Source: a virus
IMG/VR virus record: IMGVR_UViG_3300023117_000010
Location: 1 to 64,000 of that record
Strand: one strand, 5' to 3'
DNA length: 64,000 nucleotides
Shown here: piece after piece, positions 1-21,047 of the stretch
How positions within the stretch are numbered: the first letter of the stretch is position 1
How the letters are laid out: every line of letters begins with the position of its first letter
The notes under the pieces: model-generated
What the model saw: the letters and a program-made list of their open reading frames with translations, nothing else
Databases searched by the model: none
Told to the model about the DNA's origin: nothing
Made by a program: the position numbers and the translations under genes

Positions 1-2866
1 GAACCCAACTTTCTTCAGATCCTGCAAATATGTCTATTAAATATTCTGAGGCGTGGTCTATAAAATTATCATAAAAATCTTGAGTTTTACTAGCAGCACC
101 CACTTCGCGGTAAAGGCCGCCATAACTAGAAATGCTTTGAGATTGCATAAAATTAGGAACTATTGACAAATTATACATGGCTGCGGCTTGACCTTCCCAT
201 TTAGCCTCTTCTTGAGTGTGTTCTTCGTGTTCTTCGTTTTCAATATCATCCCAATTATCAACTGAAGTCTTTTTCCATTTAGAAGTCCTTCTCCACTTAG
301 ACAGAAGTGAAAGTTGTTGCTCATCAACTCTAGTGGGCAATTGTGAAATACCTTCTCCCTTATGTAAACCTCGTTCAAATCTTTGACGATAATCTGAAAA
401 GTCTGTTTCATCAAACTCAGACCAATTTAATAATTCGTCTTCTTCTGGATTAAACATTGAACGCAATTGATTCATTGAATTATATTTGTTTATAATTTTA
501 AGAATACTTGTTGCACGACTTTCATCTTCAGATCCTGATTCCCCCCAATTTTGATTTATTTTATTAACTTCAACAAGATTTTTTGCCAATTGTTTAGGAT
601 CTTCGCTCCAAATAGAGGATAGCCACTCGTTCCATTTTTCTTTATAATTAGGATCATTTGGATTTGTCATAGTCATCTTTTCAAAAGCATCTCTCCATCC
701 CCCACGGCGTTGATCTTCAAAACTAGGAATTATCAATAAGTCTTGATTTCTTGTTTGTTGACTTTGCATTATTTTAGCAAGTTGATCTACTTGGCCCGTT
801 CTTCTTGCATAATCTAATAGTTTTTGAAGATCTTCTTGAGAGATATCTTCTGGCAAAGAGGTTAATAATCTTGCCATATCAACAGGCTTATCTGGGCTTG
901 CTTCTGGCGGATAGATTCCATAATGCTCTGGTCTATAGTTTCTATCAAACCCCCCGGGACCGGCGTAAGGGTGTCGCCTCATATTTTCGTCATATTTTGA
1001 ATCAAATTCTTCTTCTTCATCAATAGCAATCATACTTGGATCATAGTTAGACTCTCCATCCATATTTCTAAACTCTTGCCATTCGGTTATATTGCGACCC
1101 CCGGGAAGAGTCGGTTTTTTATTAAAAAGTCGTTCAAACCCGTTGGGATCTGTCATAAATTGACGAATTCTTTTTCTATATTTTGCAAGAGGGTGAAGGT
1201 TTTGTTTTCCTTGAATTTGTTGAATAGAGCCGTCTTTATTTATTTCTAAAGTAGCGTGAGGTTTATTATTTGGACTTCTTAAAGAAACAATTTTTATTAG
1301 ACCTTGTTCTATTCTGTCTCCATATCCTTGACGACGAACACAGTGTTGCATAGTTTGACCTTCATAATCACACTCTTCTGGTGAAAGATCCCTTATAAAC
1401 CATCCATCGGGCCACTCATAAATAATTTTTTCGTCTTTTTTCTTTTCTTCATCTAAAGAAACTCCTTGAGACAGAAGTTCTAAGTCCCATTCTTGGATTT
1501 TATCAAAAATATCTTTTACTGAAAATTCCATGATGTTAACGCCACGACGAGTAGGAGAATTACTTCCATACCAATCTGCCCAATGAGAAAGAGTTGCTTC
1601 GTCTAAAAATCCTCTAAATTCAGTTCCTTCAATGGGAGTAGTTTGCATCAGTTCCACAAAAGCATCTTCGCCTTCTCCAACCATTGAAGGTTCTAATCTT
1701 TTCTTTTTATATTCTCTTACAATCCAAGGCAGAAAGTCATCAACTTTTTCGGGAAGACCTTTCATCCAGTCAAGAACCTTTTGCCCCTCTTCTGTTCTAA
1801 GCACTTTAGGATCGTCTTTAATAATCTTATCTAGTTTAGATGCGGTTACTTGTTTCCACTTAGATTGTTTTTGTTCTGGTCTATAAAAACCACAAGTGCA
1901 TGGTTTCCCTGTATGAACATTTTTATGAAGAGTAGACTTTGCAATTTTTTCACTTCTATATTTTTCTTTAGGTTTCATTTTTTTATCGCCAAGTATTTCT
2001 GATGCAGAAGGTACATAGTCGCCAGAATAGGGGCTTGCCCAATTCATTTGAGGAATAAATGGGACTTCTCCACTTTCTTCTAATTTCTTTCTTTCATTAA
2101 TTTCGTCTTGTAATTCTTGAGGGAGTTCATCTATTAATAAATCATGATCTGTTTTAAATTTAAAATTAGGAAGAGTATCTGGTCTTTGTTTTTTGGGTAC
2201 AAGAAGTTTTTTTTGTTTTCTGTTTGGAACACGCTCCCGAATTGGCGGCGTTTGTTTTTTTGTTTTTGGATGAAGCCTATGCTCCTTAAGACTTCTAGAA
2301 GGAATATTGTTTTCTTGTAAATAATTTTTAATTGCATTTGTAGAAACATTATATTTTTTTGCAAGTGATGCTACGCTTTCTCCCCCAACGTATTCAGCGA
2401 TAATATCTCTTAAAAACTCAGAACCTTTTGTGTCGCGGATTGATGGGCGCGCTGATTTTTTATCCGGCAAACTTTTATAATTTTTTTGTCCTTCAACGTA
2501 TTCACAAGCCTTAGCGCGAGTCATCCCCTTTGGAGGCTCAATAGAGCCATTACAAATACCTTGCATATATCTAAATTGGGCTTTACTACGAGCGGGCGCT
2601 TCTTTTAAAAGATAAGATTGTTTTTGATTTTGTTTCATAGAAAAAGAATAGGCAGGATACATACTCTGAAGTTCAGCAATAAGTTGTTCTCTAATTCCAC
2701 CTTCGCGCCAATACTTACGAGGAATATAGATATAATCTACAATAAGATTTTTATTATTATTATCAACTTTATAAAACAATTGACCTACCGGAAGTTGGTC
2801 TTCTTCTAAGACCGCAAATAGTTTACCATTTTGTCCTTCTTCTATGTTTTGAAAATCAACTTTCAT
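1..2866 (-). CDS. Large multidomain putative virion/internal head protein, truncated by the window edge (GNAT-like, PARSKAQ module, HTH, PcfJ-like domains)
   Basis: Hand translation from ATG 2866 is open to base 1 (MKVDFQNIEEGQNGK...). Not in the ORF track because its stop lies outside the window. PcfJ-like motif EGQTMQHCV...SLR...KPHATLEI...IQQIQGKQN; HTH GESVASLAKKYNVSTNAIKNYL. Confidence 0.85.
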   Translation of the reverse strand, partial: MKVDFQNIEEGQNGKLFAVLEEDQLPVGQLFYKVDNNNKNLIVDYIYIPRKYWREGGIREQLIAELQSMYPAYSFSMKQNQKQSYLLKEAPARSKAQFRYMQGICNGSIEPPKGMTRAKACEYVEGQKNYKSLPDKKSARPSIRDTKGSEFLRDIIAEYVGGESVASLAKKYNVSTNAIKNYLQENNIPSRSLKEHRLHPKTKKQTPPIRERVPNRKQKKLLVPKKQRPDTLPNFKFKTDHDLLIDELPQELQDEINERKKLEESGEVPFIPQMNWASPYSGDYVPSASEILGDKKMKPKEKYRSEKIAKSTLHKNVHTGKPCTCGFYRPEQKQSKWKQVTASKLDKIIKDDPKVLRTEEGQKVLDWMKGLPEKVDDFLPWIVREYKKKRLEPSMVGEGEDAFVELMQTTPIEGTEFRGFLDEATLSHWADWYGSNSPTRRGVNIMEFSVKDIFDKIQEWDLELLSQGVSLDEEKKKDEKIIYEWPDGWFIRDLSPEECDYEGQTMQHCVRRQGYGDRIEQGLIKIVSLRSPNNKPHATLEINKDGSIQQIQGKQNLHPLAKYRKRIRQFMTDPNGFERLFNKKPTLPGGRNITEWQEFRNMDGESNYDPSMIAIDEEEEFDSKYDENMRRHPYAGPGGFDRNYRPEHYGIYPPEASPDKPVDMARLLTSLPEDISQEDLQKLLDYARRTGQVDQLAKIMQSQQTRNQDLLIIPSFEDQRRGGWRDAFEKMTMTNPNDPNYKEKWNEWLSSIWSEDPKQLAKNLVEVNKINQNWGESGSEDESRATSILKIINKYNSMNQLRSMFNPEEDELLNWSEFDETDFSDYRQRFERGLHKGEGISQLPTRVDEQQLSLLSKWRRTSKWKKTSVDNWDDIENEEHEEHTQEEAKWEGQAAAMYNLSIVPNFMQSQSISSYGGLYREVGAASKTQDFYDNFIDHASEYLIDIFAGSEESWV

Positions 2867-2903: not shown

Positions 2904-5900
2904 CTATACACATATTTCTTTTAATTTAGATTCTTTATATCCTTTTCTGTAATTTATTGCTTCTTTTAGCGAAGATTCAAAAACATCAGGGTAAATTCCT
3001 AGTTCTTCGTATTCAGGATTAAAGTCTGGATCGTGTTCTTGAAGTATTTCTTCTACAGGTCTAAGACCATCTCCATCTAATCCTTCTCCAGTTTCGGGAT
3101 TAATTAAGAAAAAGTGCCACGCCCCGTCATTTGGCCCTTCAGCAATTTTATAGATCGGCCAGCCTGTTTCTTGATGTTTTTTTATTGCAAAAAGGTCGCA
3201 GTCTCCGTGTCTCCAATTATTATTTGATTCTTTATATCCAACAGGCTGAATGATAAGATCATATGGATGCTTGCCATGATCAAAGTGGAATGACCAGCGC
3301 TTCTTTTCTTCGTAAAGTTTTAGATCTTCCATTGCATGCCCGTCTTGCTCTTTTGCTTCGGAATCAATCTTTTCATTATCATGAGGATTTTCTTTATTTA
3401 TATATCCGTCTTTAAGTTGTTTAAGCCACTTGAGGGTTTGTTTTTTTACTTCTTCCCAACTTCCAGTAGTGAGGATATCGTGGCCCATCTCTCCATCAAG
3501 AACGGCTTCCCATGCGTCTTTTTTATTTGCTGAAGTTTTGTTACCATTAAATAATCTTTTAAACTCTTCGTGATAAGTATTTTTAAATATAAGATAAAGA
3601 TTATTTTTATCATCATTTGATAAAGAATTCATCAATTCTTTTTCTGCTTGATCCATTTCATAAACAGGCATTGTATTATTAAAAAGATGATTCCACAACG
3701 CTTCTTTTGCTATTTGTAGAAGATAATAAATATAAAATTTTTCAATTGAAATTCCTTTTTCAAAAAGTTGTTTTAATCTTTTTTCTCTAAAAATGTCAAC
3801 TTGGTTTGGATCATAAAAACGATTATTAAGAGTTTCTTGAGTTATCCCAGATGAAGATAGATCTATATCATCTACAAGATATTTTAATTGTTCATTACTA
3901 CTTCCGGGAATTGCATTTCCAAATGGGTGATTTTCAAATTGTTCCCATATTTGTTTTGCTTTTCTAATCGCTTCTTTTTTTGTAACTTCTGGGAGAGATT
4001 TTCTTGCAGGAATAAGTTTTTCTCTAACAAAAGAGTCTGTAAATTCACTATTTTCAAACATAGCGGTTTTTGAATACATACCCCATTGTCCCTTTGGTCT
4101 TGCATATTCTGCTGGTTGTGGATTATGCTTAGGACGAACTATTTTCCATTTTTTATTATTAATGACTTTTTCTTCAGGCTTGTCATCTTCTTCAATAGAA
4201 TCTGGAATTCCTTCAAAGGTTGTTTCTGCAACTTCATCTCCAATTGCCATTTGTCTTTGCCCATGAGAACTTGTTTTCTTTGCAATATTAATTATTTCTT
4301 TATTATTAAGTTTATTAAAATCTATGTAGTTGTGAACTATGCCATATTCCCAACCAGCCTTATAACTCTGTTCTAGTATTTCCCAGAATTTTTCCCAGTC
4401 ATCGTTGGGAATATCTGTTTTTTCAAAAAAATGAGTATAATTTTTAACTATAATACGAACGCCTTCTCCAACAATTATTGGTTCAAAATTATTTCTTAAT
4501 CTCTCTCTAAATAATTCTAATTGGTTTGGATTGTAATGTCTATCTGGTTCAACATAATCGTCTGATTTATTAAGTTCATTATAATTAATTCTGGCTAACG
4601 CTGTTTGTGCATTATGAAATCCATTAACAACACCTTGAAAACGAATATTATCAGCAACTAAAGCATTTTTTGAAGATTTTAAGTCTTCCGACTCTTCAAT
4701 TACTTGATCTTCGTGGTCATTAAGCAAAAAGTCTATTTGAGCCTCTTCTTCATCCCAGTCAGATGAAATAATTTTCCATTTAGATAATTTTGAAGATGTT
4801 TCTTCTTTAAATGTCTCATCCCACGCTTTATAAAAAGCATTATTATAAATTAATTCATTTTCTTTTGTGTTTGTAATATCAAATATGTCTTTTAATATAA
4901 TCTTTTTTTCTAAATATCCTAACTCTAACATATAATATTCTATTCGATCCAGAATAAGCCATTGAAGTTCTGTTTTAAACGATCCAACCCAATAAACTTC
5001 ATCTTTCAAAACATTATCTGCCATAGTTCTGAGTTGTTCAATTCCTAATCCTAATTGATTTTTATTAATTAAACGATTTTCTTCCGTTTGATGAAAATGA
5101 ATCATTTTTTCTTCATATGTATTTAAAGGAGAAATTATCTCACCATCATCGTCCAACCATACTTTTTTTTCTTTATCGTAATGTTTATTTAATCTATCAG
5201 TGTTATATCTATCAATCCATGCTTTTAAAATTCTAGAGGCTTCCCACCCGGCTCTTTGAGGTAATAGAACAGGAACTTCTTCTATTATTTTATTTATAAT
5301 TTGTTTTGTACTGTCAGTATAGTCGTCATGAGAAGCGATCTTACCACGATATTGAAGATCTTCTTTTACCCAGTCATAAATTTCTTGCCAATTTATATTT
5401 TCTACTTTAAGTAAATATCTTTCAATATCTTCTGGCTCTGGTTCTCCAAAGAAACCAAATTGCATCTGTTCCATCTCTTGAACATATTGCTTTTGCTTTT
5501 GCAAACTAAACGGAAACTGTTTTCTTGCTTGCTGTTTCCATGTTTTTCTAAGTTCATTTTTTTGGGCTTCTACATCTTGTTCGTCTGATATATTTTCCCA
5601 ATTTTGAGCAATTCCTTGATTATAAGGATTAAGCACATTTTCAATCATCCAATTAGCAAGGTCTTGAACAGAGCCACCTTGACGAACAATCTTTTCCATT
5701 GTCTTAATAGAAGGACGCAATATTCTTGAGTCCGATAATATTTGTTCAACTAAAATTTCTGTTTCTGGAGTAGACCAATTTTCATATTGAGAAGCAGTTT
5801 TAGATTGTTGCCTCATCCAATCAACAACTTGTGGACTTGGAGAAGCAGGTTCTGGCTCGGGCAACTCACCCTTTACGTTATAAAGATCCATCATTTCTTG

Positions 5901-8900
5901 ATCGGGGTGAATGTTACGATCATTTTGCTCTCTCTGTCTTTGCTCTTTCCATTTTTCAAAAAATGCTTCAGCAATGTTATAACCACCTAAAACATGGTTT
6001 ATTTCTATTTCTGCTCGTCTTTCTAGTTCTCCAGTATAATCATGTGCTTCATCCCACAAATATTGTCTTATAGTATCTTCTATGTCTGCCCAATGTTCTT
6101 CATATTCTTCTGTAGTTAACTGATCTTCAATATTTATATAAAAATCAATTGCTGTTTCTACAAAATATTCAAACCAACGTCCCGCCTCTTCTGTTGCCCA
6201 TTCTATTGCAAGATTTTCTTCAGGATTTGAATTATTAACTAAGGAGTTAACATATTTTTTAAAAATTGCCTCGTCAGACCACACACCTAATGGTACTAAC
6301 TGCTCAAAAACTATATCTTCCCAGTCATAATCTTCAAGAAAAGAGGTAACAATCGAATCTCCATCTATAGTTTGAACTTCTTGAAGAATCATCCAGTCAA
6401 TTTCTGACCAGTCTCTAATATCTTTTTCCTCTTCTTCCTCTTCTTCTTCATCCCACTCATCTGCTGCAACAATCTTCCTTTTAGAACCCTTCCACCAACT
6501 TTCAGGTTCCCATTTGTCAAGATTTTTATATCTTCTTAACTCTTCTTCTTCTTGTTCATTTCTTTCTGGTTTATTTTCATAAAAGTCTACAATATCAGAA
6601 GGAGTCCACTTGGGGTGATCTTGATGGTCTAACTCGTATCCAGTTTCAGTATAAACTTCGTACAAAGCGTTATTAATAGCATAAGGACCGCCAAATGCAG
6701 TTTGACGAACATTATTATGCATTATTTCAAACTGACTATGTATTTCATCATCATCTATATACATCAATGATTCAAATATTGGCGTAAAAATATCAATAAA
6801 TGCATCTTGGATAAATGAATCAAGATCATATGCTGGGCCATTGTAACCACTTTCTTCTTTGATTTCATCAATATAATCATACCAATTATATAATATTTCG
6901 TAAGCAACTTTAACCTTTTCAAATACAGTTGCTTCAGATTCCCAATCAAACGTCGCAGTTTTCTTAAGATTTTCTATCATTGTATGATAAAGGCGAGGCA
7001 GGAACTGATTGGGCATAGCAGAAACTTTTGTTTGAAAATGTTTTTCATATCCTGCTCTAATCTCATCATCCGATTCTCCACTTAAACGCCCTTGAGAGAT
7101 ATAATTATACATGCTTTCCATTTTTTGAAGCAAGTCGGGCATTTTATTGTTAATAAATTCTTCAATTGCTATAATTCTTGTTTCGCTGAAAGAATAATAA
7201 CTTTTCTTCCAATCAGGGAATAGTGATTCTAATAATTTTTGATGATTTGTAAAGTCTATCCACGAATCATGAAGCCGTTCCATTTTTAATTGATTGGGAA
7301 CAACTTCCATTCTATCTGGATATTTTTCAACGGTAAAACCGCTTCCCATTGATGGAAGATCTTCTAAAACAACATCAAATGCATATTTTTCAATTAATTG
7401 CTTAGTTTGATTTTCGTTTTGTTCTAATTGATTGTAGTATTGAGTATATAAATCTTCAAATCCCCCTGCAATCTTCCATTTAGAAGTAAAATCCCAAGGC
7501 TTTTTAGGAAAGTCTTCTTCAGTTGCCCAATTTAAAGGCTCATCAGATCCACGCAATGTCTGAATCTTCCATTTATCTTTAATTTTCTTACGATGCTTTT
7601 TAGCCTCGTTCTCATCTGTCTCTTTGGGACCAAGATAGGCTTCGGCGTCTGAGTCTACTGGGTCATAAAAACGTTCAATGTTGTTTATTACAGTAGGCCA
7701 TAAACTTAAAACTTTACTATCATTTAATAAATCTTGAGCGTATTTGTTTAACTCGTTATACACATAGTTATTAATAGGTTCATATACACTTATCAGTTTG
7801 TTAAGTTGATCGGATAAATCATCCCAACCATTAAGCGCTTCGTCTAAGAATCCTAAAAAGTCTAAACTATTCATTTCGAAAGAAAGATACCTTTCAAGAA
7901 GCATATCTTCTTCTAACCAAATTATTTTATCATTTGTTAAATTTGTTAAATCATTGCGAATTTTTTTAACAAAATGAAATATGTCGCCTCTAACTTCATC
8001 AATAGCCTGATTTGCAAAATATCTATTAGTGTCTTCCCAATCTACATGCTCTCTTGCTAAATCTTCTATATCATAAATTAAATCTGTATCATTATCATAT
8101 AATTCTCTTAATTCTGGAGAAACGCCGCTTTGAGGGCTTTCAAGATAATCATAAATGTCTCTCCAAATTGCTTCTGATATGCTATCTTCGGCAACATAAA
8201 TTGCATCTCTATAAGTAGAGTCTTGCACAAATTCTAAATCAGAATAAGCGGTATCTTTATAAGCATCCATATAATCTATGGGATATGGAGCAACATCTTT
8301 TGCTAGTTCTTCTATTTCTTTTTGAATTTGAGTAGAGTAATCAGATGCTACCTTACTCTCCCATCTTTTTTTAGGAAAGTCGTCTTCGCTAGCCCACTCA
8401 AGTTTTTGCCCCGGCTTGCGTTCCGTTTGGATTTTCCATTTATCGGCTATATTTCTGCGATGTTTTTTAGCCTCATTTTCGTCTGTTGCTTCAGGGCCAA
8501 GATAGGGTTCTCTACTTTCTGGCACAGGATTATATAATTCGGAGATATTTGCACTCTCTGAGAATGCCGCTCTTAGCCTTTCTTCATCAATATTTTCCCA
8601 AAATCCTTCATCAACGTCAAGATAAAATTCTTCTATAAGAAAATAAGGATCTTGAATATAGGGATTAGGTTCTCCTTCTTCAATATAACCTGTTGCAGCA
8701 CGAAGTTCATTGTATGCATTAGATTCATAAATATGATCTTCTATTAAAGAAGTCTTTCCTTCTTTAAGGTTTTCTAAGTAATCAATTCTATCTTTAACAG
8801 ACCAGTACCTAACAGAATTTTCAGACAGATCCATTACATATTCAGCAAAATATTTACCCTCTTGATATCCTGCCTGATTAACAGATTCTTCAATAATCTG

Positions 8901-11900
8901 TGCATATTCTATTCCAAGATTCCGAACAGACTGTTCAATATACTCAAAAAATTCCCATCTGTTTTCTTCAGTTCTTAGTTCTTCTGGGACTGTATTATAA
9001 AAATATCTTTCTGCTTCATCAATAAGGCTTTGTTTTAGCCTTTCATACATTCCAAGGAATTGCGCTCTTTCCCAGTATGCTATATTTTTTGGATTTAACC
9101 CAAGAGATTTTCCTGCAAGATTGGCATATTCTGCTAATAAATATTCTTCTGGATCATAAAAATTATTATTTATTCTGTCGTTTGATTGTTTAGTATGAGA
9201 GCCTTTCCACCATTCTTCGGGTTCCCATTTTTCTTTTACTTCTTCTGTTTTCTTTTTACGTTCATCTTCGTTAATTTCTTGATGAAGTACTTCGTTGGCT
9301 TTTTCTTGACGCCGATCCCACTCTTCTGAAGTTTTTGCACCAGTTTCTATAATTTTTTCAAAATATTCAAAGATATCTGTTTTATTGCCAAACCAATCTT
9401 CCATAAATTGAACTTCTGGGTATTTATCAACCCATTTTTTTAATTCGTTTAAAACTTTTTGAATTTTAGGAATAGCGGAAGGAAAATATGAAAGCCATTC
9501 TTGTTTATCATATTGGCGATTAGCAAGTTGATCGTTTATACTATCAAGAATTGGATGTAAACTTTTTTTAATTTCTTTTTCAGTAGGTTCCCAATTTTTG
9601 TTTATATTTTTACCACATTCATCACATTGCTTCCACCAATCATCTTCATCGGGATATTCATCTTTAAATAACGAGGGGTAAGAACCACCTTCAAAGTCAA
9701 TATAATCTCCGGGTTTTAGATACTGCATATACTTTTGGGCACAATCTTTACATATGTCAGACCCATAATCATCTTGATTTTTAAATATAACGTAGTGTTC
9801 GTCGCGTGAGTCTAAAGGGCTACTTGTTTTAGAGGTAAAGTCCCAAGGTTTTTTAGGGAAATCTTCTTCTGTTGCCCAGTTTAATCTGTCTCCCTTTGAT
9901 CGGTCGTAATCAACCTTCCATTTGTCAGCGATATCTCTGCGATGTTTCTTGGCCTCATTTTCGTCTGTCTCTTCTGGGCCAAGGTACGGCTCTCGTGAGG
10001 GGTCAACAGGTTCATACAAATGTCTTGCGTCTGCTCCCAAAGAGTCTTCCATCTTTCGCACACTAATATTACTCCGAAATCCTTCGTCTAACCCCTCGCT
10101 CCAATCATCGTATCCGCTGTTTAGACTGGCTTCCTGAAGAACTTCAGCGGCATTGTGAAAAGAATAAACTTCATCAAAGTCCCACATATTTGCATATTCA
10201 AGAAGATTAGAATGTCCTTCTTCGATATTTTTTATTTCGTCCAGTCTAGCCGCAATCGGCCAACTTTTTACTTCAGCCGGGTCAAAATCCATAAAGTAGG
10301 AGGCAATTGTTTTTCCCACTCTTTTTGCATCTTCATAAATTGCATCATAGATATCCCTTGAATATCTATCAATAATTCCGTAAATTTCTTCTTCGACGGC
10401 TTCAATAAACTTTTCTTTTACTACTTGTTCATCTTTAATATTATATCGTTTAACAAAACTATCGGCAAAATTATGTACTTCGTCTTCAAGATAAAAAAGA
10501 TCGTTAGAAAGAAGTCTTTTATCTGTCACCAAATCACTAATAATATCGGCCTTTTCCCAGTACCGTAGATTGGTAGGGTTAACAGTTATGCTTTTGTTTT
10601 TCTGCTGCACATAACTTTCAACTATAACTTGTTCAAGATCATAGAACTTATCTTTCATCTCTTGAATTAATTCAGGGGTGGCTGCAATAACCCTTTTCCG
10701 TTTAGAACCCTTCCACCAGTCGGCTGGTTCCCATTTGTCAATAATTCTTTTACGGTGCTTTCTGGCTTCGTTCTTATCTGTTGCCTCTGGCCCCAGATTA
10801 GTTTCCATATTTTCTGGGAGTGGGTTATATAAGTCATAGAGATTAGAAGGAATATAACCCATATCATCTGGTTCTGGCTGCTCAGATTGGTATTCGAATC
10901 CCCATTGATCCCAAAGTTCTTGATAATCAACATCTTTGCGTTCAATTAAATTGACAGCATCATTTTCTTCTTCGTTCATACGATCAATAACTTTATTTAT
11001 TTCTTGAACAAAATAATCAAACGACTGGCCGTTTTCCATTATATTAAAAAATCTGTCGTAATCGTCATCATCATCGTAAGTTTCAGACCAGATTCTTTCT
11101 TGAATGTCTGGGTTGCGAGCAGAACCTTTCCACCAACTTTGCGGCTCCCATTTGTCTTGAATATTTTTTTGACGTTTTTTATTATTTTGTATATCATATT
11201 CTTCAGAACTCATATCTTCAGGCGAAATAGAAATATTTTTATTTGAATTATTTAATCTTTTTTTTATATTTATTCTGTAATTTTCTATTATGCTTTGAAA
11301 TTTATTTATGATTATTTCGTAAGCATCTTTTTTAAATTTCAAAAGAGAATTTTTTGGTATATTTTTATTTCCAAAATTGTTTATATGCCATTTAATAAAG
11401 TCGTCAAATGGTTTAAACCATTCTGGGTTTCCATATCCTAAAAATTTTAATGTTTCTTCTGCTGCGGCTTCATCTGAGTGATATCGTAAAAAAGACTTTT
11501 GATAATATTCATTAATAAAATCACTTAAAGAGATTCTAAAAAAGGCTGCTGCAAATTTTTCAGCAATTATTAATGGGTCTGTGTCTGAACTTGACCCCTT
11601 CCACCAACTAGCCGGTTCCCATTTATCTTTTATTTCTTGTTGTCTTTGTTGATTGTGTTTCTCTTGAGTCCAGCGGTTATAGAAATCTTTTTGAGCCTGT
11701 CGGTAAGATTTCTTTTTAGCCTCAATTTCAGTTTCATCAAGCCCACCAAATTCATCTTCCCAATCAACTGAAGATTCGTTTAGGAAATCGTCTACTGTTT
11801 CCCCACAATCTACACAAGTGAGCATTTGATATGGAGCATCATCTTCATGATAGTTGTACCATTCATCCCACGGAGCAATTGGGTTAGGAGAGCCATCTGG

Positions 11901-12614
11901 TTGTTGTTGAGGCCAACGACCAGATTCATCTAAGCCATACGCTTTTTCAGCACAAGAAGGGCAAAGATATTCGCCGCCATTTGTAATATACGCAATTGGG
12001 TCTAAATGACCGCTTAACTTGTTTGATTTATTTAAATTATATATATCTAACATCTCTTGATCTGGATGAACATTTCTATCTTTTTCAAGATGATGTTTTT
12101 TATATTCATCTTTTAATTTTTGGCTAACATATTCTGGAGTTAAGATATATTCAAACAATTCATCTGCTTTATCAACAAGCATTTTTTTTGCTTTAATTGC
12201 CCAGAATTTTGTTACTAAGTCTTGTATGGCATTATCAATTTCAGAAGGGTATTTTTTAATTTCTTCTGAACTTACAATATGTTTAATATTTGAATATTCA
12301 TCATAAATTTTGTAAAAACTATCTTCAAAATGGCCTAAATTTTGTTCAACCCAATTGTCTACTAAATCGTGGAAATCAGAAGTCATTGCATTATAATCAA
12401 AATTCATCATTTCTCTATAAGAAATTAAAAATTTAGTTTCGTACTCGGGGTCATCTTTTTCTGGAAAATTTAAAAAATATTTAAAAAATTTCCAAATTTC
12501 AGGTTCTCTAATTGATGGGTTAAAGTTTCCAACATAGTCGGATACTAAAGACTCTAGATCTATACTAAATTCATTTTTTATTCGTTCAACAACATCATAA
12601 ACTTCTTGGTCCAT
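2904..12614 (-). CDS. Giant 3236 aa acidic modular protein, putative internal head polyprotein
   Basis: Uninterrupted ORF with several families of internal peptide repeats, two CxxC...CxxC zinc fingers and a C-terminal Cys-His-Asp-like domain. Function is inferred. Confidence 0.9.
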   Translation of the reverse strand: MDQEVYDVVERIKNEFSIDLESLVSDYVGNFNPSIREPEIWKFFKYFLNFPEKDDPEYETKFLISYREMMNFDYNAMTSDFHDLVDNWVEQNLGHFEDSFYKIYDEYSNIKHIVSSEEIKKYPSEIDNAIQDLVTKFWAIKAKKMLVDKADELFEYILTPEYVSQKLKDEYKKHHLEKDRNVHPDQEMLDIYNLNKSNKLSGHLDPIAYITNGGEYLCPSCAEKAYGLDESGRWPQQQPDGSPNPIAPWDEWYNYHEDDAPYQMLTCVDCGETVDDFLNESSVDWEDEFGGLDETEIEAKKKSYRQAQKDFYNRWTQEKHNQQRQQEIKDKWEPASWWKGSSSDTDPLIIAEKFAAAFFRISLSDFINEYYQKSFLRYHSDEAAAEETLKFLGYGNPEWFKPFDDFIKWHINNFGNKNIPKNSLLKFKKDAYEIIINKFQSIIENYRINIKKRLNNSNKNISISPEDMSSEEYDIQNNKKRQKNIQDKWEPQSWWKGSARNPDIQERIWSETYDDDDDYDRFFNIMENGQSFDYFVQEINKVIDRMNEEENDAVNLIERKDVDYQELWDQWGFEYQSEQPEPDDMGYIPSNLYDLYNPLPENMETNLGPEATDKNEARKHRKRIIDKWEPADWWKGSKRKRVIAATPELIQEMKDKFYDLEQVIVESYVQQKNKSITVNPTNLRYWEKADIISDLVTDKRLLSNDLFYLEDEVHNFADSFVKRYNIKDEQVVKEKFIEAVEEEIYGIIDRYSRDIYDAIYEDAKRVGKTIASYFMDFDPAEVKSWPIAARLDEIKNIEEGHSNLLEYANMWDFDEVYSFHNAAEVLQEASLNSGYDDWSEGLDEGFRSNISVRKMEDSLGADARHLYEPVDPSREPYLGPEETDENEAKKHRRDIADKWKVDYDRSKGDRLNWATEEDFPKKPWDFTSKTSSPLDSRDEHYVIFKNQDDYGSDICKDCAQKYMQYLKPGDYIDFEGGSYPSLFKDEYPDEDDWWKQCDECGKNINKNWEPTEKEIKKSLHPILDSINDQLANRQYDKQEWLSYFPSAIPKIQKVLNELKKWVDKYPEVQFMEDWFGNKTDIFEYFEKIIETGAKTSEEWDRRQEKANEVLHQEINEDERKKKTEEVKEKWEPEEWWKGSHTKQSNDRINNNFYDPEEYLLAEYANLAGKSLGLNPKNIAYWERAQFLGMYERLKQSLIDEAERYFYNTVPEELRTEENRWEFFEYIEQSVRNLGIEYAQIIEESVNQAGYQEGKYFAEYVMDLSENSVRYWSVKDRIDYLENLKEGKTSLIEDHIYESNAYNELRAATGYIEEGEPNPYIQDPYFLIEEFYLDVDEGFWENIDEERLRAAFSESANISELYNPVPESREPYLGPEATDENEAKKHRRNIADKWKIQTERKPGQKLEWASEDDFPKKRWESKVASDYSTQIQKEIEELAKDVAPYPIDYMDAYKDTAYSDLEFVQDSTYRDAIYVAEDSISEAIWRDIYDYLESPQSGVSPELRELYDNDTDLIYDIEDLAREHVDWEDTNRYFANQAIDEVRGDIFHFVKKIRNDLTNLTNDKIIWLEEDMLLERYLSFEMNSLDFLGFLDEALNGWDDLSDQLNKLISVYEPINNYVYNELNKYAQDLLNDSKVLSLWPTVINNIERFYDPVDSDAEAYLGPKETDENEAKKHRKKIKDKWKIQTLRGSDEPLNWATEEDFPKKPWDFTSKWKIAGGFEDLYTQYYNQLEQNENQTKQLIEKYAFDVVLEDLPSMGSGFTVEKYPDRMEVVPNQLKMERLHDSWIDFTNHQKLLESLFPDWKKSYYSFSETRIIAIEEFINNKMPDLLQKMESMYNYISQGRLSGESDDEIRAGYEKHFQTKVSAMPNQFLPRLYHTMIENLKKTATFDWESEATVFEKVKVAYEILYNWYDYIDEIKEESGYNGPAYDLDSFIQDAFIDIFTPIFESLMYIDDDEIHSQFEIMHNNVRQTAFGGPYAINNALYEVYTETGYELDHQDHPKWTPSDIVDFYENKPERNEQEEEELRRYKNLDKWEPESWWKGSKRKIVAADEWDEEEEEEEEKDIRDWSEIDWMILQEVQTIDGDSIVTSFLEDYDWEDIVFEQLVPLGVWSDEAIFKKYVNSLVNNSNPEENLAIEWATEEAGRWFEYFVETAIDFYINIEDQLTTEEYEEHWADIEDTIRQYLWDEAHDYTGELERRAEIEINHVLGGYNIAEAFFEKWKEQRQREQNDRNIHPDQEMMDLYNVKGELPEPEPASPSPQVVDWMRQQSKTASQYENWSTPETEILVEQILSDSRILRPSIKTMEKIVRQGGSVQDLANWMIENVLNPYNQGIAQNWENISDEQDVEAQKNELRKTWKQQARKQFPFSLQKQKQYVQEMEQMQFGFFGEPEPEDIERYLLKVENINWQEIYDWVKEDLQYRGKIASHDDYTDSTKQIINKIIEEVPVLLPQRAGWEASRILKAWIDRYNTDRLNKHYDKEKKVWLDDDGEIISPLNTYEEKMIHFHQTEENRLINKNQLGLGIEQLRTMADNVLKDEVYWVGSFKTELQWLILDRIEYYMLELGYLEKKIILKDIFDITNTKENELIYNNAFYKAWDETFKEETSSKLSKWKIISSDWDEEEAQIDFLLNDHEDQVIEESEDLKSSKNALVADNIRFQGVVNGFHNAQTALARINYNELNKSDDYVEPDRHYNPNQLELFRERLRNNFEPIIVGEGVRIIVKNYTHFFEKTDIPNDDWEKFWEILEQSYKAGWEYGIVHNYIDFNKLNNKEIINIAKKTSSHGQRQMAIGDEVAETTFEGIPDSIEEDDKPEEKVINNKKWKIVRPKHNPQPAEYARPKGQWGMYSKTAMFENSEFTDSFVREKLIPARKSLPEVTKKEAIRKAKQIWEQFENHPFGNAIPGSSNEQLKYLVDDIDLSSSGITQETLNNRFYDPNQVDIFREKRLKQLFEKGISIEKFYIYYLLQIAKEALWNHLFNNTMPVYEMDQAEKELMNSLSNDDKNNLYLIFKNTYHEEFKRLFNGNKTSANKKDAWEAVLDGEMGHDILTTGSWEEVKKQTLKWLKQLKDGYINKENPHDNEKIDSEAKEQDGHAMEDLKLYEEKKRWSFHFDHGKHPYDLIIQPVGYKESNNNWRHGDCDLFAIKKHQETGWPIYKIAEGPNDGAWHFFLINPETGEGLDGDGLRPVEEILQEHDPDFNPEYEELGIYPDVFESSLKEAINYRKGYKESKLKEICV
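6485..11625 (-). repeat. Five dispersed coding repeats (D/E)KWEPxxWWKGS
   Basis: Copies at about 11595-11625, 11122-11156, 10705-10740, 9200-9232 and 6485-6520. Confidence 0.9.
7479..10832 (-). repeat. Four dispersed coding repeats (L/F)YxP...LGPxxTDxNEAxKHRxxIxDKW, three extended by LxWA(T/S)ExDFPKKxW
   Basis: Copies at about 10731-10832, 9834-10021, 8352-8538 and 7479-7671. Confidence 0.9.
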
Positions 12615-16559: not shown

Positions 16560-17640
16560 AAATGCTTTGCGTTTTAAAAAGCATGGGACTCCTAACTTAT
16601 ATCACATCTTGGTCTAAACAGATAGGGGGGGGTATCAACGAGAATGAACGAAGTTTGAAAAATACTCTACAGATTTGAAGGGAGGGGGACTCCTACCCCC
16701 CAGATGGGTTCCCTAAATGTAAATATGATATGGGGGGAGGGGGGTGCCCCTTGTGTATATCCAGAGAGTATGATAGGGGGCACAACTTGACGGCACAACT
16801 ACTTGGCCCTTATCACATAAGTAATATAGATGCAACTTACATATGCGGCACTACACTTGGCTACATATATGTATGTATTAGTGCTTGACATATGGGGATT
16901 CATGTAGTAGCGCACACATAAGTCCCCACTTATATCAACATTTGCCCCACATAACCCCCATTCATACATACACTTATATTACATCTATCCCCTCTATTCA
17001 TGCGGGAATACAGGTATTTGAGTTATATGTAAGTAGTGACGCATCCATGACGATTGTATTCAGTATGTTGTAAGTATGTGACATATCTATATATGTTCTA
17101 TTTGTTATGGATTCTTTATGGATTTATTAGGGCCGCGCCGTGGGTATCCCCTCATACTTTCATCATACTTGTAAGGATTGTATGAGGGCCGAGAGAATGT
17201 GATGGAAGTATTAGAGAAGGCTGAACTATTTGTGAGATTGTGATTCTGTGTTGGGGTTTGGTGAAATGTCGGTATTTGCGAACTTATCCATTTCCCAACA
17301 TGGCTAGAGAAAGTGTGCGATTTGCAGGAGGTTTGTGGGCGCTTAGATGTTATCGCAATGTAAGAACGCACAGGAAGCCTTCTATGCCCTGTTACAAGCG
17401 TTCTAGGTGTCCTTATACCTAGAGATTCCAGAATGTTGGTGTGAGCAGGCATTCTTCATACCTTTGTAAAGAGGATAAGCACCCCTTAGATTGGCTTAGA
17501 GTGATTGAGGGGCCGCTTGTGCGAATCCCGCACAAAGAGATTGAGGAAGCGGTTTACTGAACCTTCATTTGACATAGAGATTCAGATGTAGTATTTGCGC
17601 GAGTGCGTGCGCCTGTACGCGCGGATATGTTGTGGCTCAA
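16560..17640. other. About 1.1 kb non-coding strand-switch region (candidate genome terminus or packaging region)
   Basis: No credible ORFs; G-runs, repeated GGGACTCCTA and CACAACTT; transcription diverges on either side. Confidence 0.5.
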
Positions 17641-17644
17641 TCCT

Positions 17645-17698
17645 CTAACAAAGTCTTTACACGATACCCCTTGTGCAGAGAATCGAAAGGAGTAGTCT
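17645..17698 (+). promoter_or_regulatory. Early promoter P1 with upstream CTAACA-N5-TTTACA box
   Basis: ctaacaaagtctttaca...TTGTGC-16-TAGTCT. Confidence 0.65.
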
Positions 17699-17737
17699 CC
17701 CCGGCGTGGCAAGCAGACCCACTAAGGAGAATGACTG

Positions 17738-17977
17738 ATGGATAAAAACATGCTGAACGACCGGCGTTCCGGTGTGACTAAGTTTGTGGAGGTTCCCTGT
17801 TCGGTGAATCCTCCGCAGCGTGGCGAGACTATCGTTCAGTCTCGCGGCACCGGCACCCGTTGGTTCCATGACCCGTCGCACCGGAGTTGGCACCTGATTT
17901 CCTCGTGCCCCCGGTGTGGTAACATCCACCGCCCCGCAGGAGTCAAGGACACCCGTATCAAGAAGGAGAACGACTGA
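17738..17977 (+). CDS. Small early protein with CxxC
   Basis: AAGGAG RBS; first gene after P1. Confidence 0.75.
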   Translation: MDKNMLNDRRSGVTKFVEVPCSVNPPQRGETIVQSRGTGTRWFHDPSHRSWHLISSCPRCGNIHRPAGVKDTRIKKEND

Positions 17978-18117
17978 TGATTGACATTCTCACCCGCATC
18001 TACGGCAAGGGCTTTGTGTTCCTCGCTCCGTGGTATCTTGACAAGCCTGCGGGTTACATTACCCGTCGTGGATACCACCGCAGCATCATGTATTCGATTC
18101 AGAAGGAGAACGACTGA
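17977..18117 (+). CDS. 46 aa early protein (not in ORF track)
   Basis: MIDILTRIYGKGFVFLAPWYLDKPAGYITRRGYHRSIMYSIQKEND; junction motif at both ends. Confidence 0.7.
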   Translation: MIDILTRIYGKGFVFLAPWYLDKPAGYITRRGYHRSIMYSIQKEND

Positions 18118-18287
18118 TGGAGATTCGCCCCGGCGACATTGTGCTGGTTATGGTCCACGACCGCGAGGTTTGGGCTAGGGTTGATTGGACTGACGGTTTC
18201 CACTACCTTGATGTGGAGCCGCTTACGGGAGTCCTTGCAGAGACTTCCATCGTGTGCAAGACTGACGACGTAATCACAATCGGTTAG
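18117..18287 (+). CDS. 56 aa SH3/KOW-like early protein (not in ORF track)
   Basis: MEIRPGDIVLVMVHDREVWARVDW...; junction motif with RBS. Confidence 0.7.
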   Translation: MEIRPGDIVLVMVHDREVWARVDWTDGFHYLDVEPLTGVLAETSIVCKTDDVITIG

Positions 18288-18300
18288 GAGAGAACCGAGA

Positions 18301-19116
18301 ATGAGTATCAACAAGGCAACAGAAACGCTCATCACCCGGCTTGTGGCTTCCATTGAGTCGCAGCGTAAGGCTATTGACAATACCCTTACTCAGTATGTCC
18401 AGCGCGGTGAGATTGAGCGGGCCGAAAAGGTCCACGGAGAACACCGCAACGGCGACCACGCTGTAAGCATTCGTCGCCCCCGCAAGATTCGCGTGGCTAC
18501 GATGGAGGCAGCGATTGAGTGGATTTCCGCTCATAAGCCTGCCGGTGTGAAGGACGTAATCAAGCGCACCCGTTGGCAGACGAATGGTGCCATTGACTAC
18601 TACATGCAGGTCACGTTCAACGACATTCCGGCATTCAGCGACTACTGTGGGCCGCAGGCCGCTATCATGTTCGCAGAACGGGTATCAGACCGTCGGGATG
18701 CGGCGTGCAAGGCGCGCGAGGAAGTTATGGCGTCTTATGATGCGATGAAGGATGAGGTCAGTCAGGCCGTCCGTGAGGTCACTAACCTCACTATCAAGAT
18801 GCGGCATGAGAAGCGTGACAAGGATTATCGTCGGCAGGTGACTTCGCTGAACGGTCAGATGCGTCGTGACCTTGCTCACGCCTTCGTCGCTACGACGGAC
18901 GAGGAAATCGGCTACCTGTGCGACACCGCCCGTAGCCTGTATATGCTGCTCCCTTCCGGGCAGGACGAGGCAGCGTTGCGGGCTTATCAGTCGGTCACTA
19001 GGTTCCTTGATGCTCGCAGGAGGGCGGCTAGGTTGCAGGACGAGGTTATGGAAATGACTGAGGCTTGCGACGAGTTTGAGCAGAAGATTCGTTCCGGCAC
19101 GCTGGTCGCAGCCTAA
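18301..19116 (+). CDS. Helical/coiled-coil early protein
   Basis: 271 aa ORF, AGGAG RBS, biased codon usage. Confidence 0.85.
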   Translation: MSINKATETLITRLVASIESQRKAIDNTLTQYVQRGEIERAEKVHGEHRNGDHAVSIRRPRKIRVATMEAAIEWISAHKPAGVKDVIKRTRWQTNGAIDYYMQVTFNDIPAFSDYCGPQAAIMFAERVSDRRDAACKAREEVMASYDAMKDEVSQAVREVTNLTIKMRHEKRDKDYRRQVTSLNGQMRRDLAHAFVATTDEEIGYLCDTARSLYMLLPSGQDEAALRAYQSVTRFLDARRRAARLQDEVMEMTEACDEFEQKIRSGTLVAA

Positions 19117-19166
19117 CAAAGTTCTAACCTCCCTTCCCTTGATTGTTGTGGGGAAGGGAGTAGGCT
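19113..19166 (+). promoter_or_regulatory. Early promoter P2
   Basis: ctaacaaagttctaac...TTGATT-16-TAGGCT; 10-bp inverted repeat around the -35. Confidence 0.65.
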
Positions 19167-19200
19167 CTAGTCAAGAGAAAGAGAGAAAGAGAGAGACATT

Positions 19201-19461
19201 ATGGTTCGCAGGTTCTACTCAGGAAGCAACAAGGTGACTGCTCTTCGCACCAACGATGGGAAGTGGATTATCAACGAAATCACCAAGACCGTTCCGGTGA
19301 ATGGCTACTTCTACGACAAGCCGGGGAAGTACCTTGGCTCTGTTGAGAAGGCGGGCAGCAAGTGGAACGTCAGCAGCGCGGAGAACGGGAACGTACCGGG
19401 CTTTGGCACGCTGGCCTCAGCGGTTGCCTACCTTATGACAAGGGAGGCGCAGCGTGCCTGA
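19201..19461 (+). CDS. Hypothetical early protein
   Basis: First ORF after P2. Confidence 0.75.
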   Translation: MVRRFYSGSNKVTALRTNDGKWIINEITKTVPVNGYFYDKPGKYLGSVEKAGSKWNVSSAENGNVPGFGTLASAVAYLMTREAQRA

Positions 19462-19774
19462 GAACAAGGATAGCGATTACATAAACGAACACCCAGATTA
19501 CTACGGAGAGGAAGAAGGTAATCGTATGAGCAACCTTGCAGACCCGAAAGTGACCATCGCAAAGAATGACTACGGAGTGTATGTCACTATTGACTTCCCT
19601 ATTGTGGATGTTGATGGATACGAGAGTACGGCGTCTTACACCGTTTGCTTGGAGAACACCCCTTACGATGATGGTACGCCAAACGCTAGCGTTACCTTCC
19701 ATGACAATCAGCAGTTTGACGACACGCACTATCGTAACGTCCTGCCAGAGTTTCGGATGAAGGAGATTGACTGA
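19454..19774 (+). CDS. Hypothetical acidic early protein
   Basis: GGAGG RBS; overlap with neighbours. Confidence 0.7.
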   Translation: MPENKDSDYINEHPDYYGEEEGNRMSNLADPKVTIAKNDYGVYVTIDFPIVDVDGYESTASYTVCLENTPYDDGTPNASVTFHDNQQFDDTHYRNVLPEFRMKEID

Positions 19775-21046: not shown

Positions 21047-21047
21047 C

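Follow-up and report, generated by a model that had tools for sequence, protein, structure and literature searches.

A giant mosaic phage protein with recurrent junction peptides: a candidate new family of polyvalent type

The protein P0001, encoded by an uncultured salt-marsh phage within the 64,000-nucleotide stretch of viral DNA analysed here (the window), is best read as one member of a new family of mosaic phage giants of polyvalent type, whose modules are joined according to a junction code. We hold this explanation as a whole with moderate confidence, and the modular, polyvalent-type nature of the protein is very likely. P0001 is a modular mosaic with selection at the peptide level; its junctions coincide with module boundaries and fall within linkers modelled at low confidence, and single modules also occur as free-standing proteins. 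P0001 would be a string of approximately 16 independently folding modules, mostly acidic and helical, with a few repeated paralogues and a majority of unique units. The modules would be joined by basic Trp/Lys peptides of the forms S-KWK-[I/V/K]-[A/S], the reduced K-[T/I/V]-[A/S]-[A/S], and (basic helix)-DKWEPxxWWKGS. Every member would contain one nearly invariant core of about 105 residues ending in GYKES, and the cassettes around it would be swapped between phages and between the genes of one phage. Such a precursor may bring many activities together and then be cut or docked at the junctions, and this processing or docking would most likely be tied to capsid loading and host delivery.

The reading frame of P0001 has no internal stops over 3236 aa (370 kDa if intact; Table 1), and the protein was recovered from 11 contigs, the longest of 127 kb. 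Its composition is acidic (D+E 20.8%, K+R 12.1%, W 3.2%), and its segments are 63–341 aa long with net charges of −1 to −44 and a single exception of +2. The modelled segments are mostly helical. The whole protein had no match in Pfam or PHROGs, contains no HExxH motif, and gave no match in 50,697 GenBank phage records, either by megablast or by tblastn with both halves; therefore, no virion proteome bears on it. Pfam searches with ten single modules at E values up to 1 returned sub-threshold noise apart from a Zn ribbon and the M91/M78 matches of a relative, and a search of the ESM Atlas reached scores of only 0.75–0.78. One Cys-His-Asp module and two Zn ribbons are the only nameable parts of P0001.

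Table 1. Positions of the P0001 gene, its neighbour, and the features of the protein in the window
Feature	Position	Strand	Residues and remarks
Giant ORF P0001	2904..12614	(-)	3236 aa, ATG start, TAG stop
PcfJ-like ORF, downstream	2..2866	(-)	at least 955 aa, runs off contig end
DRNVHPDQEM-containing domain, copy 1	12033..12365	(-)	aa 84-194, hhalign
CxxC...CxxC zinc ribbon	11805..11963	(-)	aa 218-270; Zn_Ribbon_TF below threshold, E 8e-4
KWEPxxWWKGS tag 1	11592..11627	(-)	aa 330-341, end of module A
KWEPxxWWKGS tag 2	11121..11156	(-)	aa 487-498, end of module B
Region with four copies of one repeated domain family	7473..11120	(-)	self-BLAST, hhalign
KWEPxxWWKGS tag 3	10704..10739	(-)	aa 626-637, fused to LGP element, end of module C
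Second zinc ribbon	9615-9752		aa 955-1000
KWEPxxWWKGS tag 4	9198..9233	(-)	aa 1128-1139, end of unique Zn-ribbon module D
Canonical junction S-KWKI	7470..7484	(-)	aa 1711-1715, DFTS-KWKI-AG
KWEPxxWWKGS tag 5	6483..6518	(-)	aa 2033-2044, end of module F
DRNIHPDQEM-containing domain, copy 2	5874..6212	(-)	aa 2135-2247, hhalign
Module H	5259..5831	(-)	aa 2262-2452
Canonical junction S-KWKI	4770..4784	(-)	aa 2611-2615, KLS-KWKI-ISS
Module K	4068..4256	(-)	aa 2787-2849, ..NNKKWKIVRPKHNPQP..; present in 20 relatives
Family-defining core domain	3225..3554	(-)	aa 3021-3130, K-T-S-A before, GYKES at end
Cys-His-Asp module	2928..3224	(-)	aa 3131-3229; C3139, H3172, D3184/3186; bracketed by two GYKES

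The repeated motifs listed in the original prediction were reproduced exactly, with their copy numbers. Besides the five [DE]KWEPxxWWKGS tags, P0001 contains LGPxxTDxNEAxKHRxxIxDKW four times (aa 607, 878, 1372, and 1661), WA[TS]ExDFPKKxW three times (aa 913, 1407, and 1696), and two copies each of DRN[VI]HPDQEMxDxYN (aa 179 and 2232), YxPNQxxxFRE (aa 2694 and 2934), and GYKES (aa 3126 and 3225). In 2000 residue shuffles of P0001, every motif had zero matches except GYKES (four in total). Synonymous positions vary freely among the five KWEP copies, the four LGP copies, and the Lys codons of the junctions; in the KWEP tag, Pro is encoded by CCG, CCG, CCA, CCC, and CCT, and Gly by GGG, GGT, GGT, GGC, and GGT. 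Because the synonymous sites differ between copies, the repeats do not stem from recent duplication of DNA, and it is their peptide sequence that has been maintained. As judged from the codons, selection acts on the tag peptides, and the junction peptides are very probably functional as peptides. That the tags are by-products of DNA-level duplication, gene conversion, or recombination hot spots, with no peptide function, is very improbable. Such an origin would agree with the clear shuffling of the modules, with the two GYKES copies, which differ at 1 of 15 nucleotides, and with the Ser codon before KWK, which is TCT in 15 of 16 cases compared with 44% overall in the same genes. However, it is largely refuted by the codon variation of KWEP, LGP, and the junction Lys, and the motifs persist between unrelated flanks in phages of 35% and 42% GC. 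Other readings of the string TCT-AAA-TGG, as the remnant of a TAA-ATG boundary between genes or as a place of frameshifting, were dropped because no feature supported them.

P0001 had been described as a series of unrelated domains, each capped by a tag, and profile-profile comparison upholds this description for some of the motifs. Segments C (499–637), R1 (638–932), R2 (1140–1424), and E (1425–1714) are copies of one domain family (hhalign probability 99.7–100%), among which module D (933–1139) is interposed. The LGP..DKW and WATEEDFPKK motifs are the conserved C-terminal part of this family. Segments A and G have in common a domain of about 110 aa that encloses the DRN motif (hhalign 97.8%, 110 columns), and the two YxPNQ segments (J and L) may also be related (BLAST 48% over 31 aa, hhalign 25%). 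By these alignments, half of the listed tags are ends or parts of homologous repeated domains. The caps found on otherwise unrelated modules are KWEP..WWKGS, GYKES, and the short K-x-[AS]-[AS]/KWKI linkers only, and KWEP..WWKGS forms the last 12–30 aa of segments A, B, C, D, and F. The four-membered family, the two further segments with a common domain, and the mostly helical models could be taken to indicate a structural repeat protein (fibre, decoration, or scaffold) whose segments would all have diverged from a single unit. This is extremely improbable: beyond the two groups and the weak J-L match, module pairs align over their last 12–30 residues only, and different folds for modules A, B, D, F, and H–L are largely indicated. 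Moreover, the relatives have enzyme domains, and modules exist as single genes. Module H is common to 11 relatives at 51–76% and to three more at 27–31%, and a relative of it forms the C-terminal module of a separate 523-aa gene of the same phage.

The family-wide junction is S-KWK-[I/V/K], and P0001 often has the reduced form K-[T/I/V]-[A/S]-[A/S]. The pattern [KR]WK[IVK] occurs 6–12 times per giant, compared with about 0.13–0.2 expected (1000 shuffles, maximum 3). In the relatives, the core is flanked on both sides by junctions (..ES-KWKV-SKKDAWEAV.. and ..GYKES-KWKK..), and the P0001 sequence that aligns there is N-KTSA-NKKDAWEAV. Therefore, the basic linker previously noted after the tags is the same junction; the earlier description had captured the family-wide S-KWK junction only as basic linkers. 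In the AF2 model of aa 3015–3236 (pLDDT 80.7), both junctions flanking the core have pLDDT values below 50. The same tags are also found in two other genes of the phage.

Approximately 30 relatives were found, all of them metagenomic mosaics. They include nine long homologues (1950–2678 aa), 20 more obtained by an exhaustive HMMER search, and two giants on IMG/VR contigs (L004, 2165 aa; L006, 3216 aa). Scans of viral contigs yielded no relative with P0001 alone, only one distant match with P0016, and only L004–L009 and L024 with the alignment. The relatives share modules in differing orders and numbers, and single modules are stand-alone genes on long contigs. Their comparison bears out the predicted modular array, in which the tags are retained while modules are gained, lost, and reordered. 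Breakpoints lie near tags about four times as often as at random, since 25.7% of the homology (HSP) end points fall within 10 aa of a tag, compared with 6.6 ± 0.6% for random positions. Junction motifs were seen across unrelated flanks and in both the 35% and the 42% GC phages. In the relatives, the cassettes following the junctions include ParB_N, GNAT, PcfJ-like, and HExxH (ALWHELQHAYQ) modules. HELQH is conserved in L004g, L006g, P0010, and P0014, with sub-threshold M91/M78 matches (E 0.02 and 0.08), and in P0018, P0020, P0021, and P0025 one protein unites a PcfJ domain with the core. On the basis of these sequence matches, the payload modules of the relatives are probably enzymes of the kinds typical of injected phage effectors.

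The core of about 105 aa is 76–94% identical among the giants, and apart from the core, L004g and L006g have nothing but module K in common with P0001. The core is predicted to begin with two strands and a helix, to continue with a short helix followed by a long one, and to close with two further strands. A fold search with the core gave no match above background, and Foldseek searches of the PDB and BFVD with the model of aa 3015–3236 returned nothing below E 0.001. The first AF2 model (aa 2780–3236) was poor (pLDDT 53.5), and the Foldseek search with it was uninformative. The core also exists as a free-standing protein of 107 aa (P0023) on a 34-kb contig.

The Cys-His-Asp module is the one candidate enzyme module of P0001. 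The Cys, His, and Asp marked in Table 1 are invariant in six sequences at 37–79% identity, and they follow the papain/transglutaminase order, with Cys at the start of a helix (GxCxxFA) and His and Asp on later strands. The model has a helix followed by strands (pLDDT 72–96). The best fold matches are weak (VIA Z 3.5–4.8): protein-glutaminase 2zk9 (Z 4.8 over 90 aa), 8z3i (Z 4.5), AvrPphB (Z 3.8), 3c9q (Z 3.7), and transglutaminase 7c9j (Z 3.5). All five are papain/transglutaminase-fold enzymes, and the module is closest to deamidases rather than proteases. The model thus suggests a weak resemblance to this fold. In Pfam, YunG alone was matched, below threshold and on a relative. The module is present in only 3 of approximately 30 family members, and a free-standing version (P0027) is encoded on a 39-kb contig. 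A phmmer match to caspases (E 0.2) spanning the boundary between the core and this module was judged to be due to chance.

Proteolytic cutting at the junctions is a tentative proposal, the balance leaning somewhat against it. T4 gp21 cleaves at (L/I)xE, and T4 uses capsid-targeting sequences. In phiKZ and SPN3US, the gp245 motif AXE recurs in several proteins associated with the head, among them the portal at its N-terminus, and marks cleavage there (PMC10052503). Processed internal head proteins of the T4 and phiKZ types lose an N-terminal targeting sequence at (L/I)xE or (A/S/G)xE through a prohead protease of the S77/S80 type. The modules of P0001 had been proposed to be cut apart in the prohead. 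Across three related genomes, S-KWK was found in the giant itself and, in the phage carrying P0001, in the PcfJ-like neighbour, and in no portal, terminase, or other protein; therefore, it is not a general prohead-protease site. No prohead protease of PF04586 or PF03420 (S78, S77) was found on the three partial genomes, which are 57–82% complete, PF03420 also being null in control genomes. The reduced form is distributed more widely. K-[TIV]-[AS]-[ASG] is enriched in the giant (8 compared with 0.88 expected), at the N-terminus of the portal (2 compared with 0.21), and in three other large proteins (3, 2, and 4 compared with 0.31, 0.40, and 0.42), two of which lie between the terminase and the portal and one about 21 kb away. 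This enrichment resembles the distribution of prohead-protease substrates. Replication enzymes show no such enrichment, nor do the giants of the relatives for K-x-[AS]-[AS]. Unlike the sites in T4 and phiKZ substrates, which mostly remove N-terminal propeptides, the motifs of P0001 differ in sequence and lie between modules and at C-termini, and S-KWK is private to the giant family and its neighbour.

A true polyprotein strategy for injected effectors, with a private W-K + small/aliphatic code read by a phage protease, is a rather unlikely extension of these observations. The code would be S-KWK-I-A and WWK-GS, reducible to K-T-A-S, and the protease might be the array's own papain-like or HExxH cassette. 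Whatever cassette came to lie between two junctions would automatically undergo loading, release, and delivery, in a plug-and-play system for cargo with the invariant 105-aa core as the anchor. RNA-virus polyproteins, which are cut by papain- or chymotrypsin-like proteases, offer a parallel in their unrelated domains and recurring junction, and the Cys-His-Asp module is bracketed by identical junctions. However, P0001 comes from a dsDNA tailed phage, and its candidate protease module is confined to the few members mentioned above.

Conversely, P0001 may stay intact, with its junctions and WWKGS caps serving as flexible tethers or as docking peptides that bind one shared partner, for example DNA, the inside of the capsid, or the core domain; we regard this as fairly doubtful. 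Junction-like motifs stand at extreme C-termini with no module behind them, in P0035 (..IISKWKIC), the 523-aa protein (..KESSWKVLKWKRI), P0001 (..GYKESKLKEICV), and P0002, P0004, and P0005 (..QKTASEVL..), and such positions would suit cleavage no better than they suit a terminal tag or one used for docking. The motifs are also basic and Trp-rich within an otherwise acidic protein, they lie in low-confidence linkers, no protease is common to every member, and N4 vRNAP, ArdC, and TraC1 are transferred uncut (PMC5512222). However, this alternative names no specific binding partner, and one gene (P0016, 624 aa, on a 94-kb contig) opens directly with a junction, M-KWKI. The free-standing P0023, P0026, and P0027 carry no junction motifs, although a docking tag would predict the same; thus, the motif is not needed for the folding or function of the module itself. 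Encapsulin cargo has C-terminal loading peptides, to which docking tags in P0001 would be comparable, but repeated many times.

Packaging of P0001 in the virion falls just short of an even chance in our estimation. The phage has a portal (phrog_2833, E 1.8e-165), which is 41% identical to Bixzunavirus portals, and a terminase large subunit (phrog_2); BLAST comparison of the large proteins of the portal region with Bixzunavirus gp78, gp83, gp91, and gp92 found nothing. The P0001 gene is flanked by small ORFs of no assigned function and by the PcfJ-like ORF (PF14284, 42.7 bits compared with a cutoff of 25), whose modules occur inside the giants of relatives and which has QS-KWKQ and TS-KWKK junctions. 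It comes after nine small unassigned ORFs, which run leftward from about 17 kb, the point of divergence from the early region, and therefore could be an early or middle gene. Scans for promoters and terminators around it remained at chance level. This position at the end of the run, the lack of MuF or another virion-anchor domain, and the lack of any match among the GenBank phages would also suit a protein that is not a virion component and acts inside the cell, possibly early, as a multi-module hub for host takeover or anti-defence or as an acidic decoy, processed or not. We consider such a role distinctly unlikely. In G001 and G002, two of the relatives, tail-collar and fibre-like genes come immediately after the giant gene on the same strand, and K-x-[AS]-[AS] is common to the portal N-terminus and the three large proteins described above. 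In addition, cassettes of the ParB and GNAT kinds are characteristic of proteins for which injection has been proposed (PMC5512222).

In a polyvalent protein, a single polypeptide holds two to fifteen domains whose biochemical activities are disparate (Iyer, Burroughs, Anand, de Souza, and Aravind 2017, PMC5512222). Such proteins occur in portal-terminase phages or conjugative elements, with genes among those for late or virion functions; delivery into the host together with the DNA is a further hallmark of the class, and processing into units has been proposed (PMC5512222). The P0001 family resembles them in its very large size, its shuffled unrelated modules, its portal-terminase phage, and the solo versions of its domains, and ParB-like, GNAT, and metallopeptidase-like cassettes occur in the relatives. 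Unlike them, the family has no Pfam LPD, MuF, ArdC-N, or helicase-methylase hallmark, and P0001 itself had no Pfam match to the zincin-like MPTase, SNF2-methylase-LPD36, MuF, ArdC-N, or LPDs. Its hub is the new core of about 105 aa and not a zincin peptidase, and a conserved junction peptide code lies between its modules; the account of polyvalent proteins contains neither the word 'linker' nor PcfJ (PMC5512222). The Dar proteins of P1 (DarB, DdrB) and the virion RNA polymerase of N4 are giant capsid-carried proteins delivered with DNA. DdrB is processed and N4 vRNAP is not (PMC5512222). P0001 has no sequence relationship to these proteins, which are without a tag and junction syntax. As far as the sequences compared here indicate, the P0001 family has not been described before, and its junction code is a new feature relative to polyvalent proteins.

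Polyvalent proteins are thought to be a main route by which anti-defence and takeover enzymes of phages enter cells. The P0001 family gives this class a readable syntax, consisting of an invariant core and of a short junction peptide that marks almost all boundaries between modules. The syntax predicts mature products with their exact termini, and it marks dozens of uncharacterised modules as autonomous units. The junction is a short peptide and a candidate cleavage or encapsidation signal; if the code is indeed a signal for loading or release, foreign proteins could be packaged into phage heads.

The 92-kb IMG/VR phage contig whose first 64 kb form the window is about 57% complete, and its portal protein (phrog_2833, E 1.8e-165) is 41% identical to those of the large mycobacteriophages of cluster C. 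The large terminase subunit, DNA polymerase III alpha, DnaB, a primase, and a UvsX-like recombinase are also encoded. The identical giant protein (P0001) is known from 11 contigs, the longest of 127 kb; therefore, it is not an assembly artifact. Its gene is flanked by small unknown ORFs in the window and by tail-collar genes in the relatives. A plus-strand block at positions 17000–30000 of the window has a GC content of 43–54%, compared with 30–40% elsewhere in the window, and contains few long ORFs.

A word-indexed search returned nine long homologues of 1950–2678 aa, and an exhaustive HMMER search with residues 2780–3236 as the query yielded 25 proteins. Pattern scans added two giants on IMG/VR contigs, L004g (2165 aa) and L006g (3216 aa), together with fragments. 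All relatives (P0002–P0035 for the database proteins) are mosaic, and every P0001 module is found in a different subset of them, at 21–94% identity and in variable order and copy number. The original prediction of a tagged cargo array that is cut apart in the prohead is partly supported, namely in that the protein is a modular array. Of 1604 end points of pairwise homology, 25.7% lie no more than 10 aa from a tag, compared with 6.6 ± 0.6% at random positions. Part of this enrichment would be expected in any case, the tags being shared elements, although this sharing is the very claim tested.

The six motifs claimed for P0001 recur with exactly the implied counts and positions, and the segments are acidic as described (net charge −1 to −44, with one exception). 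In 2000 shuffles of P0001, no motif recurred except the pentapeptide GYKES (4 matches in total). Synonymous codon positions vary freely among the motif copies; therefore, conservation acts on the peptide. The tags were sorted by self-BLAST and by comparing 16 segments profile to profile, every segment being represented by its family alignment. Segments 499–637, 638–932, 1140–1424, and 1425–1714 form one domain family (probability 99.7–100%), and LGP..DKW with WATEEDFPKK is the conserved C-terminal part of this four-copy family. The DRN motif lies inside a domain common to residues 84–194 and 2135–2247 (97.8%), and the two YxPNQ segments may be related to each other. In contrast, segments A, B, C, D, and F can be aligned over their last 12–30 residues only, where a short basic helix is followed by DKWEPxxWWKGS. 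The alignments indicate that this KWEPxxWWKGS stretch is a true cap. The idea of unrelated domains that are each capped by a tag is thus correct for KWEPxxWWKGS but not for LGP/WATE and DRN, which belong to repeated domains. The observation is real and has in part been re-interpreted.

When all [KR]WK[IVK] occurrences of the family are viewed with their flanking residues, a junction motif emerges, x-K-[E/Q]-S-KWK-[I/V/K]-[A/S/K]. Each giant contains 6–12 copies of [KR]WK[IVK], whereas 0.13–0.2 are expected (1000 shuffles, maximum 3). The KWK junction sits between otherwise unrelated modules and, in the relatives, on either side of the core, the domain that defines the family. The residues aligned with this junction beside the core are N-KTSA-N in P0001 and KSSK or QKTSK in its close relatives; moreover, two paralogous ends within P0001 read ..PWDFTS-KTSS and ..PWDFTS-KWKIAG. 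Because of this alignment and these ends, KTSS, KVAS, KIAS, KTAS, KTSA, and KWKIAG are full and reduced forms of one junction. The basic linkers noted after the tags are therefore present, but as variants of a family junction at module boundaries. In 15 of 16 junctions (including window 7482–7484 and 4782–4784 and the L004 and L006 giant genes), the Ser that precedes KWK is encoded by TCT, compared with 44% of the Ser codons in the same genes, and AAG encodes the second Lys in 12 of 23 cases, compared with 24% overall; these counts are non-independent because several junctions are orthologous. Beyond their last junction, P0002, P0004, P0005, P0035, and P0001 (window 2907–2927) have short, conserved tails at the C-terminus, with the sequences ..QKTASEVL(M/I)(S/N)(V/A), ..IISKWKIC, and, in P0001, ..GYKESKLKEICV. 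They are possibly a terminal signal.

The core (residues 3021–3130, KKDAWEAVLDGE.GHD...RWSFHFDHGKHPYDLIIQPVGYKES) is present in 30 family members; between the giant relatives, L004g and L006g among them, its identity is 76–94%. The core and module K, a 63-aa module (residues 2787–2849) found in 20 members, are all that these two giants share with P0001. Free-standing core proteins have about 100 aa and 32–50% identity, and one is encoded on a 34-kb contig. With a more diverse alignment as input, a second AF2 prediction reached a pLDDT of 80.7; in this good model, two strands and a helix are followed by a short and a long helix and two strands. Structural neighbor searches with this model gave none that was convincing. 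GYKES forms the end of the last modeled strand. The pLDDT drops below 50 just after GYKES and at the K-T-S-A junction before the core, as would be expected of flexible linkers. Among 185,579 species genomes, the sole core-domain match is at the end of an 8-kb contig (L024, CALCSG010000037.1) in a MAG labeled uncultured Gammaproteobacteria; this contig is probably phage DNA that was binned there by mistake and is of no use as host evidence.

The last module of P0001 follows the core. P0011 and P0012 have the same cassette in the same place, with KWKIS and one more module behind their second GYKES. The first GYKES of other relatives directly precedes a ParB_N module, a module starting with KWK, or a short tail only. 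Free-standing homologues of 107–126 aa exist, and the Cys, His, and Asp residues of the module are invariant. Its best fold matches are weak but of one kind: protein-glutaminases (Z 4.8 and 4.5), AvrPphB (3.8), 3c9q (3.7), and transglutaminase (3.5). We read the module as a putative papain/transglutaminase-fold enzyme, either a peptidase or a deamidase.

ParB_N occurs in P0006, P0009, P0010, P0020, and L006g, and P0017 has a GNAT domain directly after the core. An ALWHELQHAYQ motif is conserved in L004g, L006g, P0010, and P0014 (M91/M78 matches below threshold). P0018, P0020, P0021, and P0025 have a PcfJ-like domain fused to the core, and the PcfJ-like ORF downstream of the giant is homologous over 500–600 aa to the interior of P0018, P0020, and P0021. 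A 523-aa protein of the phage has a perfect DKWEPESWWKGS tag, with KWNKIS behind it, and an internal FS-KWEK junction. It also contains two GWTNWETW modules, which are relatives of the giant's module H, and its C-terminus reads ..KESSWKVLKWKRI. Since this protein and the PcfJ-like ORF carry shared modules and junctions, the module pool and its syntax are spread over at least three genes of the phage.

Coordinates of the giant ORF and associated features (window positions unless stated otherwise)
Feature	Position	Strand	Remarks
Giant ORF P0001	2904–12614	−	Uninterrupted, 3236 aa
Last module of P0001	residues 3131–3229	−	Between GYKES and regenerated GYKES
PcfJ-like downstream ORF	2–2866	−	Cut by contig end; carries two junctions
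523-aa gene	G000 79289–80860 (L002:17289–18860), outside window	−	67 kb from giant
[KR]-[TIV]-[AS]-[ASG]-enriched proteins	36198–38318, 38378–40804, 40792–43632, 59588–62656	all −	Portal and three large acidic proteins

A second, ultra-conserved mini-module, in the PcfJ-like ORF (aa 82–138; window 2453–2623, minus strand; ..EAPARSKAQFRYMQGICNGSIEPPKGMTRAKACEYV..) is 71–83% identical to stretches in L004g, L006g, P0014, P0021, and P0022 with different flanks, and P0016 has a copy of about 52% identity shortly after the core. Another module, which has about 140 aa, starts with HW(I/V)EGFHAA, and contains YRGLYNPETGEL, follows S-KWKK junctions, with two or three copies per protein, in L004:9374–15871, L006:9023–18673, and P0010 (DUF5648 match below threshold). 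The L004, L006, and P0010 giants end with a basic stretch and a domain, YHDV..GILPKEQTG..SRPDHVY(L/I)G, that by eye looks ART/Tpt1-like.

The arrangement has the pattern of a viral polyprotein, and the junctions may be cleavage sites at which the giant would be processed. Candidate peptidase cassettes lie inside the arrays, and a gene on a 94-kb contig starts with M-KWKI. Papain-family enzymes favor a bulky hydrophobic residue at P2 and accept a basic one at P1; a W-K pair with a small residue after it would thus be a plausible site for such an enzyme. K-[TIV]-[AS]-[ASG] is enriched in the giant (8 versus 0.88 expected), in the portal N-terminus (2 versus 0.21, at aa 73 and 79), and in three large proteins (3 versus 0.31, 2 versus 0.40, and 4 versus 0.42), two of which are encoded between terminase and portal and the third at a distance of about 21 kb; it is near expectation in the other 41 ORFs. 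Two related contigs show the same enrichment in the portal and neighboring large proteins, and in Mycobacterium phage Caravan a motif of the R-T-A-G type is enriched in gp83 (6 versus 0.67) and gp91 (6 versus 0.9). [KR]-[TIV]-[AS]-[ASG] is a candidate prohead-protease site of this lineage; in giant phages, a short motif common to the portal propeptide and internal proteins is such a site (PMC10052503). However, the S-KWK form is confined to the giant family (three genomes), and the giants of the relatives contain K-x-[AS]-[AS] without enrichment. No peptidase is common to all family members, and a prohead protease was not found on the partial genomes. Several proteins terminate in a junction-like motif with no module behind it, an arrangement that a terminal docking peptide would explain no less well than a cleavage site.

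Among known systems, the giant family comes nearest to the polyvalent proteins of Iyer et al. (2017, PMC5512222), large phage and plasmid proteins that join disparate domains. They are proposed to be delivered together with the DNA and to be processed by peptidases that they themselves contain. The giant family matches how these proteins are thought to work, but it lacks their hallmark domains. Its invariant core, which is not a peptidase, and its code of junction peptides are additions that the paper does not describe. Neither "linker" nor "PcfJ" occurs in PMC5512222. The giant family is not a T4-type capsid-targeting-sequence system, from which it differs in its motifs, in where these lie, and in the protease families. 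The value of the giant family is that the question of processing and loading becomes directly testable.
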